Position numbers and translations under genes: made by a program. The notes beneath the pieces are model-generated. The model did not search any database and was not told where the DNA came from. It worked only from the letters and a program-made list of their open reading frames with translations. DNA of 64,000 nt from Candidatus Woesearchaeota archaeon (GTDB taxonomy: Archaea > Nanobdellota > Nanobdellia > Woesearchaeales > GCA-2687795), in contig JASMCJ010000008.1 of assembly GCA_030753365.1 (NCBI GenBank), positions 928 to 64,927 of the forward strand. The letters run 5' to 3'. Shown one piece after another: positions 5,283 to 53,452 of this stretch; the first letter of the stretch is position 1; each line of letters starts with the position of its first letter.

Positions 5283-5322
5283 AAAAATCCCAATCACAGC
5301 AAGCTGTGAGGTACGAAAAAAC
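5283..5322. terminator. Terminator-like hairpin module HP1: A-tract, CCCAATCACAG-CAAG-CTGTGAGG stem-loop, then a second small hairpin AAAAACC-TTT-GGTTTTT. Member of the dispersed hairpin family.
   Basis: Stem CACAG/CTGTG with CAAG tetraloop, flanked by AAAAATCCC. Same architecture as the copies at 10715, 13601, 31921 and 53415, with compensatory stem changes. Confidence 0.45.
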
Positions 5323-5351
5323 CTTTGGTTTTTGGTATCCCTCTGGAATAT

Positions 5352-5492
5352 TGTCAAAAGTCCGTGACCACCACCAGTCAATAGACTGGTGGCATGCTCG
5401 CCCACTCAAGTGGGCTCGGGTCACTCCCTCTTGAGCACATTTTATTCCACTTTGAACCACCAGTCTAGACTGGTGGAATAAAATGTTTTAAA
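5352..5492 (+). repeat. Structured repeat core, copy 1 (~141 nt) with nested perfect palindromes; near-identical to 18823..18962
   Basis: Contains CCACCAGTC-AATA-GACTGGTGG, GCCCAC-TCAA-GTGGGC and the perfect 20 nt palindrome CCACCAGTCTAGACTGGTGG. The outer pairs GTGACC/GGTCAC and CATTTTATTCCAC/GTGGAATAAAATG compete with the inner palindrome. Matches 18823..18962 with about 3 mismatches. Confidence 0.7.
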
Positions 5493-5507
5493 CTTCATAT
5501 TTTAATC

Positions 5508-5540
5508 CAACCGTTGCAAGCAACGGGGTATTAAACCCAT
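5508..5540. other. Hairpin module HP2 (CCAACCGTTG-CAAG-CAACGGGG then TATTAAACCC), enclosed by inverted repeat ACTTCAT/ATGAAGT
   Basis: Stem CGTTG/CAACG with CAAG tetraloop followed by GGGGTATTAAACCC. Homologous to GCCGATG-CAAG-CATCGGGGTATAAAACCC in the 99 nt repeat unit. Confidence 0.4.
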
Positions 5541-10552: not shown

Positions 10553-10714
10553 GGTTAAAAGGTGTTCAATTGAGAATTATCCCTTAGGTGTACTTTTCCA
10601 AAGATATGCTCCTATACCTGCAAAAACAAGTCCAACTATTATACTGATTATTTGACTCTTAGTATCAATTAAACTTGGTAGAAGAATTGGACCAATTATA
10701 CCTACAAGAAAAAT

Positions 10715-10813
10715 AAAAAATCCCAATCGCAGCAAGCTGCGGGGTATTTTTAGTATTTAGTTTGCGTATTAAGCCGATGCAAGCATCGGGGTATAAAACC
10801 CAAACTAAATAAT
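10715..10813. repeat. 99 nt structured repeat unit (HP1-spacer-HP2), 100% identical to 31921..32018
   Basis: Sequence ATAAAAAATCCCAATCGCAG-CAAG-CTGCGGGGTATTTTTAG ... TATTTAGTTTG CGTATTAA GCCGATG-CAAG-CATCGGGGTATAAAACCC CAAACTAAATA. HP1 is followed by a T-run. HP2 is enclosed by the 11 bp inverted repeat TATTTAGTTTG/CAAACTAAATA. Confidence 0.7.
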
Positions 10814-11167
10814 CAATAAAAATAATGAATGGTTATCAGACTTTATATCACAAGATAACAAAAAAACTGATAGAGATAAAGTTATTCATTTTACTATTCT
10901 GAATCTAGGAAATTTAAATGTAAATAAAAGAGAAGGAAAAATAAGAATCATTCTAAATTTAAAAAACAAAGATCTTGTTTTAAATAAATATATGAAAAAG
11001 AAACTTGAAAATTTGAAATTGTTTCTTAATAATTCCATCAATATACTTCTTGACTCTTAATGGAAATAGGAGCTTGCGTCATATTGTCGCTCCGTTTCAC
11101 TCCGTGACTTTTCCTTGCAGAAAAAAACATATAACAACCACTTTTAAAAGGAAATCAATAGAAGAAC

Positions 11168-13600: not shown

Positions 13601-13652
13601 GAAAATCCTAAAAATCGCTATCCCCACAGCAAGCTGTGAGGTATTGAACCCA
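13601..13652. terminator. Bidirectional terminator-like hairpin (family member) at a convergent gene junction
   Basis: AAAATCCTAAAAATCGCTATCCCCACAG-CAAG-CTGTGAGGTATTGAACCC; stem CACAG/CTGTG. Lies between the 3' ends of the KaiC-like gene (+) and a membrane protein gene (-). Confidence 0.45.
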
Positions 13653-18822: not shown

Positions 18823-18962
18823 TGTCAAAAGTCCGTGACCACCACCAGTCAATAGACTGGTAGCATGCTCGCCCACTCAAGTGGGCTCGGGTCACTCCCT
18901 CTTGAGCACATTTTATTCCACTTTGAACCACCAATCTAGACTGGTGGAATAAAATGTTTTAA
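18823..18962 (+). repeat. Structured repeat core, copy 2 (near-identical to 5352..5492). Its 3' end supplies the last 8 codons and the stop of the DHH gene on the opposite strand.
   Basis: Same ~140 nt as copy 1, with G to A (GACTGGTAGC) and G to A (CCACCAATCTAGA) changes that break two palindromes. Overlaps 18936..18962 of CDS 18936..20024. Confidence 0.7.
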
Positions 18963-31843: not shown

Positions 31844-31920
31844 TTTTTGCCTCCTTGAATTCGTTTGTTTTTAGTGTATTATATTATATGTGGTTATAAT
31901 AACCTTTTGATTATAATAAT

Positions 31921-32018
31921 AAAAAATCCCAATCGCAGCAAGCTGCGGGGTATTTTTAGTATTTAGTTTGCGTATTAAGCCGATGCAAGCATCGGGGTAT
32001 AAAACCCAAACTAAATAA
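31921..32018. repeat. 99 nt structured repeat unit, identical to 10715..10813; serves as the terminator region of the pentapeptide gene
   Basis: 100% identity to copy at 10715. On the minus strand the HP1 hairpin is followed by ATTTTTT immediately 3' of the stop at 32019. Confidence 0.7.
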
Positions 32019-32684
32019 TTAATATCCTGCCTGATAATAATTGCTTGGTCCTAGCCCATTATTACCCAAGAGAGGTCTTAAAGGATCAAATCCTCCGTAA
32101 AACATATATCCTTTTGGTTTTCTGCTATTTTCCTTTGTTGGAATTCCAAAGTAATTTATATTTACAGCATAAAGATTAGCGCTTCCTGTTATATTTGCCT
32201 GTCCAATATTTTGAACTTTGTACATGTTAGAACCTGAAAGATTTGTTTGCGATAAATAAGATCCGCCAAGATTTGAATATGCAAGGTTCGAGTTAGATAA
32301 ATTAGCTCCTCTAAAATCAGAGTTGCTTAAATTAACTCCACTAAAATCAACGCCTGACAGGTTTTTATTCCTGAAATTTGCTCCTTTTAACTCAACCTTT
32401 TCTTCTCTTCTCCTTGAAATGAAGTTGTTCCACAATTCCTTGTTCTCTGTTATGAATGAAACTAAACTCTCTATATCTCCTTCATTAATAAGGCTGATAA
32501 GCTCAACCAATGACTGCTTTTCTGGAATATCATTAAAGTTTTTATTTTGTGCGGTACCTTCCTCAAAATAAACCTCTGAAGTTTCATTATTCTTCTGGTC
32601 TGTTCGTTTCTTCTTCAATTTCACATTTGCAAGAGCCATCTTTACAACCACATACTTTACAGACTTTTTTACCTGCAAAATCAA
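32019..32684 (-). CDS. Pentapeptide-repeat protein (start possibly at the internal Met at ~32639)
   Basis: Tandem A(D/N)LSxx pentapeptide repeats (GANFRNKNLSGVDFSGVNLSNSDFRGANLSNSNLAYSNL). Confidence 0.65.
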   Translation of the reverse strand: MILQVKKSVKYVVVKMALANVKLKKKRTDQKNNETSEVYFEEGTAQNKNFNDIPEKQSLVELISLINEGDIESLVSFITENKELWNNFISRRREEKVELKGANFRNKNLSGVDFSGVNLSNSDFRGANLSNSNLAYSNLGGSYLSQTNLSGSNMYKVQNIGQANITGSANLYAVNINYFGIPTKENSRKPKGYMFYGGFDPLRPLLGNNGLGPSNYYQAGY

Positions 32685-33449: not shown

Positions 33450-33610
33450 TGTCAAGAACCACCCATCACAGATGGGTGGCATGAAGGATTTACGCCTAGA
33501 GCCATCCCATTTTTCTTGGTGGTTCTTGAGCATGCTCAGAAATATAACACCTTCCAAAACTGGATTGTGGACTTCGTCCACTGGTTATAAAACCAGTGGT
33601 ATATTTCTGA
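33450..33610 (+). repeat. Diverged third member of the structured repeat family (hairpins preserved by compensatory substitutions)
   Basis: Hairpin CCACCCATC-ACA-GATGGGTGG (copy 1 has CCACCAGTC-AATA-GACTGGTGG). Shared GGTGGCATG and CTTGAGCA blocks. Hairpin CCACTGGTT-ATAAAA-AACCAGTGG (copy 1 has CCACCAGTCTAGACTGGTGG). Outer stem CAAGAACCACC/GGTGGTTCTTG. Confidence 0.55.
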
Positions 33611-33614
33611 CATA

Positions 33615-52391: not shown

Positions 52392-53417
52392 TTGGAAAAA
52401 GATATATTTTTAAAATACGCTAGGTTTACAAATCTTAAGATGAAAAAGTATGATGTTTATGCAATTGGTAATGCATTGATGGATGTTTATACTAAAGTGG
52501 AGAATGAGAAATTAGTAGAGATTAATCTAAAGAAAGGGGATATGCATCTTGTTGATGAGGAACAGTCAAAAAGGTTTTTTGAAGGTGTTAAAGATAATAT
52601 ATTAAAGACTGGGCCTGGTGGCTCTTCTGTGAATGTTGCTGCTGGTGTTGCTATGTTAGGTGGTAGTGTAGCGTTCTGCGGGGTTGTAGGAAATGATGAA
52701 CAAGGTAGAATGTTTGAGGATATCCTTGTTAAAGAGGGAGTTATTGCTAACCTTGCTAAGAGCAGCAAGATGACTGGGAATGTTATTTCGTTTATTACAG
52801 ACGATAGTGAGAGGACATTTGCAACTCATCTGGGGGCGGCTCTCGAGCTGAAGAAGGAAGATGTTAGTGAAGAGGATATTATCGCAAGTAAGGTTCTTCA
52901 TATAGAGGCATATCAATTGGAGGATCCTAAGCTTAAAGAGGTTTGTTTTCATGCAATGGATGTTGCTAAGAGTAATGGTGTTAAAGTTTCTATTGATTTG
53001 AGCGACCCTGCATTGATTATGAGGAATCTTGAAGAGTTTAAGAAGGTTGTTAAGGATTATGCAGATATTGTTTTTGCTAATGAGGAAGAGGCTAAGGCGT
53101 TTACTGGTTTAGAGCCTGAAGAGGCATTGCATAAGATTGCTGAGGATGCTGAGGATGCTGTTGTTAAGTTGGGGAGCAAAGGTTCTATTATTAAGAATGG
53201 AGAAGATGTTTTTAAGATTGAGGCTGTTGAAGCTAATGCTATTGATACTACTGGGGCAGGTGATAGTTTTGCTGCAGGGTTCCTTTATGGATTTTGCAAT
53301 GAGTTGGGGATAGAAAAGTCAGGGAAGCTTGGCTCTTTTCTTGGAAGCAAGGTTGTGGAAGAGATTGGCACAAGGATTGAACAAGATGTTAAAGAGGAGA
53401 TTGAGCAATTAAAATAA
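52392..53417 (+). CDS. PfkB-family carbohydrate/nucleoside kinase (ribokinase superfamily)
   Basis: N-terminal GG motif region and C-terminal DTTGAGDSFAAGFLYG anion-hole motif. Confidence 0.75.
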   Translation: MEKDIFLKYARFTNLKMKKYDVYAIGNALMDVYTKVENEKLVEINLKKGDMHLVDEEQSKRFFEGVKDNILKTGPGGSSVNVAAGVAMLGGSVAFCGVVGNDEQGRMFEDILVKEGVIANLAKSSKMTGNVISFITDDSERTFATHLGAALELKKEDVSEEDIIASKVLHIEAYQLEDPKLKEVCFHAMDVAKSNGVKVSIDLSDPALIMRNLEEFKKVVKDYADIVFANEEEAKAFTGLEPEEALHKIAEDAEDAVVKLGSKGSIIKNGEDVFKIEAVEANAIDTTGAGDSFAAGFLYGFCNELGIEKSGKLGSFLGSKVVEEIGTRIEQDVKEEIEQLK

Positions 53418-53452
53418 AAATCCCAACCATCCAAAAGGATGGGGTATTTTTA
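53415..53452. terminator. Terminator-like hairpin (family member) immediately after the PfkB kinase stop
   Basis: AAAATAAAAATCCCAACCATCC-AAAA-GGATGGGGTATTTTTAGT; stem CCATCC/GGATGG then T-run. Shares the GGGGTATTTTTAGT tail with the 99 nt unit. Confidence 0.5.

Follow-up and report, generated by a model that had tools for sequence, protein, structure and literature searches.

Two near-identical, hairpin-rich sequences in this 64,000-nt stretch of DNA (hereafter the window) are very probably copies of a 134-nt non-autonomous derivative of an IS200/IS605 transposon, a miniature of the PATE/MITE kind that would be mobilized in trans by a TnpA transposase, by analogy with IS608 and ISDra2. The element is placed in the PATE class because it is built from a 48-nt left end (LE) fused to an 86-nt right end (RE) of an IS200-type family and lacks the tnpA between them. 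Each of the two window copies inserted recently, and a close relative has neither. The host is a marine DPANN archaeon (Woesearchaeota), since its GatB is closest, among GTDB species representatives, to that of a Candidatus Woesearchaeota MAG (70% identity), and the MscS protein is present in Tara Oceans assemblies and bears the NCBI name "Candidatus Woesearchaeota archaeon". The features discussed below, in window positions, are as follows; the minus strand of the element corresponds to the tnpA sense ("top") strand of its full-length relatives.

5352..5485, minus strand: copy 1, 134 nt, non-autonomous IS200/IS605-type element (PATE/MITE), by its empty orthologous site in L027-L029 and ends that match full-length elements
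5438..5485, minus strand: LE module of copy 1, 48 nt, by DNA fold and the X-hairpin-X' layout in relatives
5352..5437, minus strand: RE module of copy 1, 86 nt, a Y-shaped junction ending in TTGACA
5486..5491, no strand: TTTTAA target flank of copy 1, present in the L027-L029 empty site (minus strand TTAAAA, 5' of LE)
5314..5351, no strand: extra 38 bases, CGAAAAAACCTTTGGTTTTTGGTATCCCTCTGGAATAT, on the RE side of copy 1, missing in the relative and at copy 2
18823..18956, minus strand: copy 2, with two differences from copy 1 and an empty site in L027
18957..18962, no strand: TTTTAA target flank of copy 2, present in the L027 empty site
33450..33612, minus strand: third, diverged member in the same orientation as both copies, with boundaries set by analogy only

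A first-pass annotation of the DNA had recognized near-identical copies at 5352..5492 and 18823..18962 and counted about three differences between them. The copies are real, with a slightly shorter extent and fewer differences: the direct repeats run from 5352 to 5491 and from 18823 to 18962, and mismatch at 2 of 140 positions. Both mismatches (element positions 40 and 112, or 18862 and 18934 in the window) are G>A on the plus strand of copy 2 and sit within the two signature hairpins. Similarity between the copies breaks off at the very next base on either edge. The signature hairpin pattern, CCACCAGTC-N2-4-GACTGGTGG, has two matches in the 64-kb window against 0.00 expected, and the repeat folds far better than its shuffles, both as RNA (z -6.8 on the plus strand and -6.4 on the minus strand) and as minus-strand DNA (z -7.4). 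The 134 nt have no coding capacity and no transposase gene of their own: the six frames match no predicted protein, and a concatenated six-frame peptide query recovered no ORFs called over other copies of the element. A scan of the window for tRNA and tmRNA genes found none. Identities as an attC/integron site, a Helitron/IS91 element or an H/ACA sRNA were dropped because their core motifs are absent from the sequence.

What exactly is the mobile unit? Copy 1 is identical in 18 same-species contigs from different samples; a 19th begins within it and another begins just upstream, as expected because repeats break assemblies. Both sites are empty in strain P0003 (L027-L029), which has 95% identity in MscS and an exchanger-MscS intergenic region of 189 nt versus 351 nt in the window. 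At copy 2 the empty site in L027 reads TTTTTTC^TTTTAACAG (TTTTTTC^TTTTAAC, the caret marking the junction; at greater length, ...TTATTTTTTC^TTTTAACAGTTTGA), and in the window exactly 134 nt (TGTCAAAAG...GGAATAAAATG) lie between the C and TTTTAA, with no target-site duplication and an ambiguity of at most 1 nt (T). At copy 1 the empty site in L027-L029 reads GGGGTAT^TTTTAAAC (longer, GGGGTAT^TTTTAAACTTCAT); there is again no target duplication, and the junction on the RE side departs from the empty site by 38 additional nt and a 1-nt difference. Because the empty sites already hold TTTTAA, the last six bases shared by the copies are flank, and the mobile unit is 134 nt, 5352-5485 and 18823-18956. 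Read on the minus strand, TTAAAA precedes both copies and is in both empty sites, two independent sites in this genome. In relatives the same end is flanked by TTTAAA, TTAAA or TTAATA/TATTAA, and the other end has no consensus. The recent mobility proposed from the sequence is thus borne out by a close relative without the element at both sites, and the target-site duplications that were to be looked for are absent at either copy, as for an insertion of the IS200/IS605 type. The 38 extra bases beside copy 1 contain an AAAAACC/GGTTTTT hairpin and have no other copies in the window or in any fetched locus; they may be a co-mobilized flank, a separate small insertion, or a relic.

The genes around the copies encode ABCE1/RLI, two Na/Ca exchangers, an MscS channel, GatB, a DHH/DHHA1 protein and an HD hydrolase. 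Both gene contexts are as first described: copy 1 lies between a divergent Na/Ca exchanger gene (minus) and the MscS gene (plus), and copy 2 lies where a 183-aa ORF (plus) and the DHH/DHHA1 gene (minus) converge. The second insertion falls within the last codons of the DHH/DHHA1 gene (18936-18962), so that the C-terminus ...KEKINQSKA* becomes ...KHFIPPV*, the last eight codons (EKINQSKA) being swapped for six codons of the element (HFIPPV), and it removes an 11-nt overlap of the DHH gene with the convergent 183-aa ORF. In one same-species contig (ERZ4231626 NODE_878, L031:8060-8193) a hybrid element, with position 40 as in copy 2 and position 112 as in copy 1, connects the sequence left of copy 2 with that right of copy 1, and the 13.5-kb segment appears twice. 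Either the direct copies have recombined, giving a duplication or a circle, or the assembly has formed a loop. Elsewhere in the neighborhood, positions 83-2488, upstream of ABCE1, vary between strains: the window and L001/L002 have a large MopE-like Cu-binding repeat protein and a 117-aa ORF, and other same-species contigs (L030/L032/L035 and L004) have an RDD-domain gene and eIF-1A instead. Diverged direct repeats, 73-79% identical, at 42597-42716/45496-45615 and 43860-43939/44184-44263 lie inside neighboring ORFs, which suggests tandem paralogous thioredoxin-like or related genes unrelated to the element.

The third member reads TGTCAAGAA-(CCACCCATC aca GATGGGTGG)-CATG-...-GTGGTTCTTGAGCA-..., continues (CCACTGGTT ataa AACCAGTGG)-TATATTTCTGACA^TATTAAC, and so ends ...TTTCTGACA^TATTAAC (TGACA^TATTAAC). 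All ten same-species contigs fetched for it (L168-L177) contain it, with no strain polymorphism among them. In the relative, a further 66-nt remnant of the family without either hairpin (L027:139-204), CTTTGTCAAGAAC...GTGGTTCTTGAGCA...ATTTCTGACA, lies between the ABCE1 and Na/Ca exchanger genes. The window is empty there, between 4288 and 4289, and reads TTTTTAAA^TGTTATTAAG. Both strains have therefore gained family members after their divergence, since the relative has a relic at a site empty in the window and the copies of the window are missing in the relative.

Every palindrome quoted in the first-pass annotation is found in the sequence, and the arrangement of these palindromes resolves into two modules. 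On the minus strand the LE reads CATTTTATT-(CCACCAGTC ta GACTGGTGG)-TTCAAAGTGG-AATAAAATG; in the DNA fold its terminal 9 nt pair with an internal complement and so enclose a transposase-type hairpin at 5457-5476. This X-hairpin-X' layout recurs in 54 modules among the listed metagenome loci, and also forms the LE of the tnpA-bearing L073. The minus strand of the RE begins TGCTCAAGAG-GGA-GTGACC-CGAG-(GCCCAC ttga GTGGGC)-GAGCATG- and continues (CCACCAGTC tatt GACTGGTGG)-T-GGTCAC-GGA-CTTTTGACA, with its hairpin at 5371-5392, helix P3 at 5400-5415, and helix P2 formed by 5364-5369 paired with 5419-5424. The outer pairings had been thought to share bases with the inner hairpins and to be mutually exclusive with them. 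For GTGACC/GGTCAC this does not hold, as the pairing encloses the inner hairpins as a three-way junction without competition; for the other pairing, CATTTTATTCCAC/GTGGAATAAAATG, the idea survives in part, and only its 4-bp CCAC/GTGG overlaps the 20-nt palindrome. Identical 9-bp stems, CCACCAGTC/GACTGGTGG, are found at both ends of the element, 9 nt from one terminus and 19 nt from the other, and the termini themselves, TGTCAAAAG... and ...AATAAAATG, are not inverted repeats.

The hairpin belongs to a widespread family. An exact 21-mer of the central hairpin had no hits in the GTDB species representatives and the JGI metagenome collection, collections that apparently do not include this organism, because JGI/ENA contigs fetched by protein identity do contain the element; a literature search with sequence strings of the element returned only primer noise. 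A search with the hairpin pattern found at least 120 metagenome loci and five viral contigs, many of the matches at contig ends. Among the matches listed some are GC-rich chance hairpins, and at least half have flanks in common with the window element. In the orientation of the window plus strand, the first module of the family is TGTCAA(A/G)AA-hairpin-CATG-variable-GTGGTT(T/C)TTGAGCA, and the second is X-CCAC-spacer-hairpin'-X', followed after a few bases by TTTAAA, TTAAA or TATTAA. A subset has a Y-shaped first module like that of the window element, TGTCAAAA-P2-A-hairpin-CATGCTCG-P3-CTCGG-P2', in which the sequences of P2 and P3 vary by locus and their complementarity is kept. For the loci listed, the self-complementarity of P2 averages 9 nt versus 4.6 nt in cross-locus controls. 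RE modules with covarying P2 and P3 number 13 loci among the matches listed, including sites downstream of tnpA in L082, L159, L165 and L167. The hairpin itself carries compensating changes, for example CCACTCGTC/GACGAGTGG, CCATCAGTC/GACTGATGG and CCACCGGTG/CACCGGTGG, with only CCAY...RTGG constant, and a closing helix between the terminal 7-9 nt and an internal complement is present at 27 of 224 hairpin sides versus a cross-locus control mean of 2.4, again among the matches listed. Informative host contigs among these matches are archaeal (RNA polymerase A' and B, aIF-2, topoisomerase VI B) and low in GC, with a median of 35%.

Several variants of the hairpin context deserve mention. The right-end modules of L132, L069, L054, L062, L056 and L121 have P3 reduced to GCGAAGC on the tnpA-sense strand. 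GCGAAGC forms an exceptionally stable DNA mini-hairpin, and its use as a P3 arm hints that the ends are under selection to fold as single-stranded DNA. The exact hairpin also occurs in two more repeated contexts, ...gcttgtgcttatttctc-HP-aactctttggattag and ...ggcaaaaacaaag-HP-tcg... (where HP is the hairpin), at L052, L063, L088, L110 and L156, and at L055, L067, L076 and L079; these are probably additional subfamilies of the element, and at L079 a weak tnpA match adjoins the hairpin. We also looked for an IS608-style pairing of "guide" tetranucleotides 5' of the hairpins (CATG in the RE, AATT or TATT in the LE), which yielded no convincing rule.

Which enzyme might act on these ends is indicated by the genes beside them. 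When ORFs within 2.5 kb of the hairpins were clustered, the largest cluster was a protein of 134-158 aa, encoded 24-156 nt from the hairpin at nine loci, or 13 when a profile of those proteins was used, among the matches listed. The protein matches Pfam Y1_Tnp (PF01797, IS200-like transposase) with E-values of 3.5e-13 to 4e-29, and aligns with the TnpA structures of ISDra2 (2xm3, E 3e-17) and IS608 (2vhg, 2a6m) with the HUH motif (HVH) and the Y..Q catalytic helix in register. In the orientation of the gene, the full-length elements read TTTAAA(G)^N(A/T)AAGAATT-hairpin'...tnpA at the left and tnpA...P2-CGAG-P3-CGAGCATG-hairpin-P2'-(A/T)TTGACA^ at the right, including the CATG-hairpin. Three independent insertions in unrelated contexts (L082, L165, L167) have exactly these boundaries. 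The window element has the same order and motifs, the match being one of hairpin sequence and architecture. Among the matches listed there was no autonomous copy with flanks identical to those of the window element, and the closest tnpA-bearing elements in that listing are on other archaeal contigs, with hairpin flanks that resemble those of the window element in layout and differ in sequence. A search for tnpA in the 64-kb window and the same-species contigs L001-L039 (~90 kb) came up empty. At 90% clustering, over 130 relatives of the transposase are known, mostly on contigs of 0.6-1.5 kb, as is typical of a multi-copy IS; one of them carries the annotation IS200/IS605 family transposase and comes from a Candidatus Thermoplasmatota archaeon. 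The resemblance to IS200/IS605 subterminal hairpins or to a MITE, noted from the window alone, thus extends to hairpins that flank IS200-like Y1 transposase genes in full-length relatives.

For IS608 and ISDra2 it is established that TnpA binds the hairpins, cleaves, circularizes the element and re-inserts it. By analogy, a Y1 HUH TnpA supplied in trans would bind both hairpins on the single-stranded top strand of the window element and would cut after the flanking TTAAA(A) at the LE and after TTGACA at the RE, positions that are ambiguous by 1 nt. The ends could then be joined as a single-stranded circle, whose RE-LE junction would read ...TTTTGACA^CATTTTATT..., and the circle would re-insert 3' of another TTAAA-like sequence with no target duplication ("peel and paste"). 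We infer that transposition runs through single-stranded DNA, where exactly cleavage falls, and where the transposase comes from. As a separate observation on strands, GC skew is positive nearly throughout the window (1-64000; G>C on the plus strand), AT skew is mostly negative, and the transposase-sense strand is the minus strand for all three window elements (n=3). IS608 and ISDra2 have a known bias for the lagging-strand template.

Could the repeat instead be a multi-copy structured ncRNA gene, as the first-pass annotation had also considered, for instance an sRNA or a guide scaffold like the omega/reRNAs of TnpB/IscB, with DNA mobility secondary? The strong and compact fold on both strands would suit such a gene, as would the covariation of P2 and P3 in the Y-shaped right end. 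Such helices are not known to be needed for TnpA binding in IS608 and ISDra2, and because the Y-shaped RE exceeds the structure known for TnpA binding, some RNA or single-stranded DNA function is possible. The minus strand is moreover the better RNA fold (-65.7 versus -57.8 kcal/mol), and the copy 2 substitutions become G.U pairs there. PATEs of other IS200/IS605 groups often have omega-RNAs (PMC10055086). However, Rfam 15 covariance models had no hits in the window at gathering score, the best sub-threshold match (E<=10) being SNORA25 at 27.9 bits versus a gathering score of 85, which is noise; the proposed Rfam check thus returned no match. The element is dispensable, both sites being empty in the close relative, and it travels with tnpA. 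The expected partner is not seen either: there is no recurrent TnpB- or IscB-sized gene near the hairpin among the 125 loci listed, tnpA is the sole recurrent neighbor, and full-length relatives have tnpA alone. The argument from strand asymmetry (G.U pairs on the minus strand where the plus strand would have A.C) is true of the window element and unsupported across the family, where a crude test for preferential top-strand folding was negative, with only 16 of 44 relatives showing it, and for this reason we do not use it as evidence. An RNA gene is accordingly improbable as the primary identity of the repeat.

Marginally less probable still is that the repeat is of the REP/BIME type and kept up by a domesticated RAYT, and is not derived from a genuine IS. 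Short palindromic repeats and a Y1 HUH-type protein are common to both readings, some JGI records label the transposase homologs "RayT", and the genome does contain a second hairpin family in its intergenic regions. But the three independent tnpA insertions have identical LE/RE boundaries in unrelated contexts, the >130 transposase clusters lie mostly on IS-sized contigs, and it is this mobile and multi-copy nature of the transposase gene itself that makes a domesticated RAYT unlikely. The window element is furthermore a defined LE+RE unit with precise insertion polymorphism, and it lacks a conserved GTAG-type REP head. A last alternative does without transposition: a local cluster of regulatory or terminator hairpins could have been copied by chance, through segmental duplication or gene conversion. 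It would fit the two copies known in this genome, both intergenic or at the 3' end of a gene, yet we consider it excluded for practical purposes by the empty sites and by how the family is distributed. Two unrelated contexts show the same sharp boundaries, the relative has both ancestral sites empty, and the architecture recurs in dozens of unrelated archaeal contigs and beside transposase genes.

The second hairpin family is separate from the transposon-derived element. Its members read AAAAATCC(C)AAT-stem-(GCAAGC loop)-stem-GGGGTAT(TTTT), with covarying stems, and lie between genes at 5283-5313, 5503-5540, 10716-10746, 10770-10805, 13613-13643, 31922-31952, 31976-32011 and 53416-53446, as well as in another metagenome contig (L091:1474). 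Two of them flank copy 1, and a 110-nt unit of two hairpins is repeated at 10709-10818 and 31915-32024 with 98% identity. This family might be a REP-like repeat or a terminator.

Read as a non-autonomous IS200/IS605 derivative, the structured repeat becomes an annotated mobile element with exact boundaries, target sequence and orientation. It documents recent transposon activity in the reduced genome of a little-studied DPANN host, where one insertion has rewritten the C-terminus of a DHH-family protein and the direct copies, separated by 13.5 kb, offer a substrate on which deletions or duplications can arise. A gene-less hairpin transposon is a known kind of selfish DNA; this archaeal family appears to have been undescribed so far. 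With the pattern CCAY-N5-loop-N5-RTGG and its CATG/TTGACA flanks, it also supplies a signature by which to search for a widespread archaeal IS200 family, one that breaks up metagenome assemblies and can readily be taken for non-coding RNA. The conserved extra structure of the ends is a modest lead on how HUH transposases recognize their ends. A broader and decidedly more speculative proposal, which we regard as conceivable rather than likely, is that these sequences represent a large undescribed archaeal clade of tnpA-only IS200 elements and their miniatures, with elaborate ends, a possible extra function, and a bias toward promoters. Such a clade would extend over low-GC archaea, DPANN among them, from marine, groundwater and sediment settings. 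Both of its cleavage sites would be sequestered in closing helices and its RE would be a covarying Y-shaped junction, with the extra structure serving perhaps as a regulatory or guide-like RNA, or as a switch in single-stranded DNA that controls cleavage. Its TTTAAA target resembles an archaeal TATA box, which could bias insertions to promoters.

How does the family compare with known systems? IS200/IS605 is reported to be the most widespread IS family in archaea (PMC13343696). The relatives of the window element share with IS608 of Helicobacter pylori and ISDra2 of Deinococcus radiodurans a Y1 HUH TnpA, similar subterminal hairpins at both ends, the lack of terminal inverted repeats and of target duplications, and insertion beside a short specific sequence that abuts the left end. 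They differ in their target, which is TTAAA/TTTAAA-like versus TTAC or TTGAT in IS608 and ISDra2, and in that the full-length relatives carry tnpA without tnpB. Their ends are more elaborate, with the terminal 9 nt in a closing helix and an RE that is often Y-shaped with covarying arms, and the spacing from cleavage site to hairpin, 9-10 nt at the LE and 9-19 nt at the RE, is different. IS200 of Salmonella and other enterobacteria, the tnpA-only subgroup, is likewise a single ORF in an element of ~0.7-0.8 kb, with a TnpA of ~150 aa and structured ends, but it is bacterial, has other hairpin sequences and is rarely mobile; derived miniature copies are not known as a feature of it. RAYT proteins (TnpA-REP) are also Y1 HUH proteins that act on short DNA hairpins, those of REP/BIME repeats. 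RAYT, however, is a single-copy domesticated gene, whereas the transposase gene here is mobile and multi-copy, and REP palindromes are solitary, ~20-40 nt long and present in hundreds per genome, whereas the repeat here is a bipartite LE+RE unit. The closest likeness in kind is to the PATEs of Haloquadratum walsbyi and the PATE-like elements of Geobacillus stearothermophilus, which are gene-less LE+RE derivatives of IS200/IS605 elements (PMC3119063; PMC10055086). The window element falls into this class, in which elements are mobilized in trans and have no terminal inverted repeats and no target duplication (PMC3119063; PMC10055086). The Haloquadratum and Geobacillus PATEs are kin of tnpB-bearing elements and often have omega-RNAs, whereas the element described here has no tnpB partner that we could see, belongs to a different sequence family, and resides in a DPANN archaeon of the Woesearchaeota.
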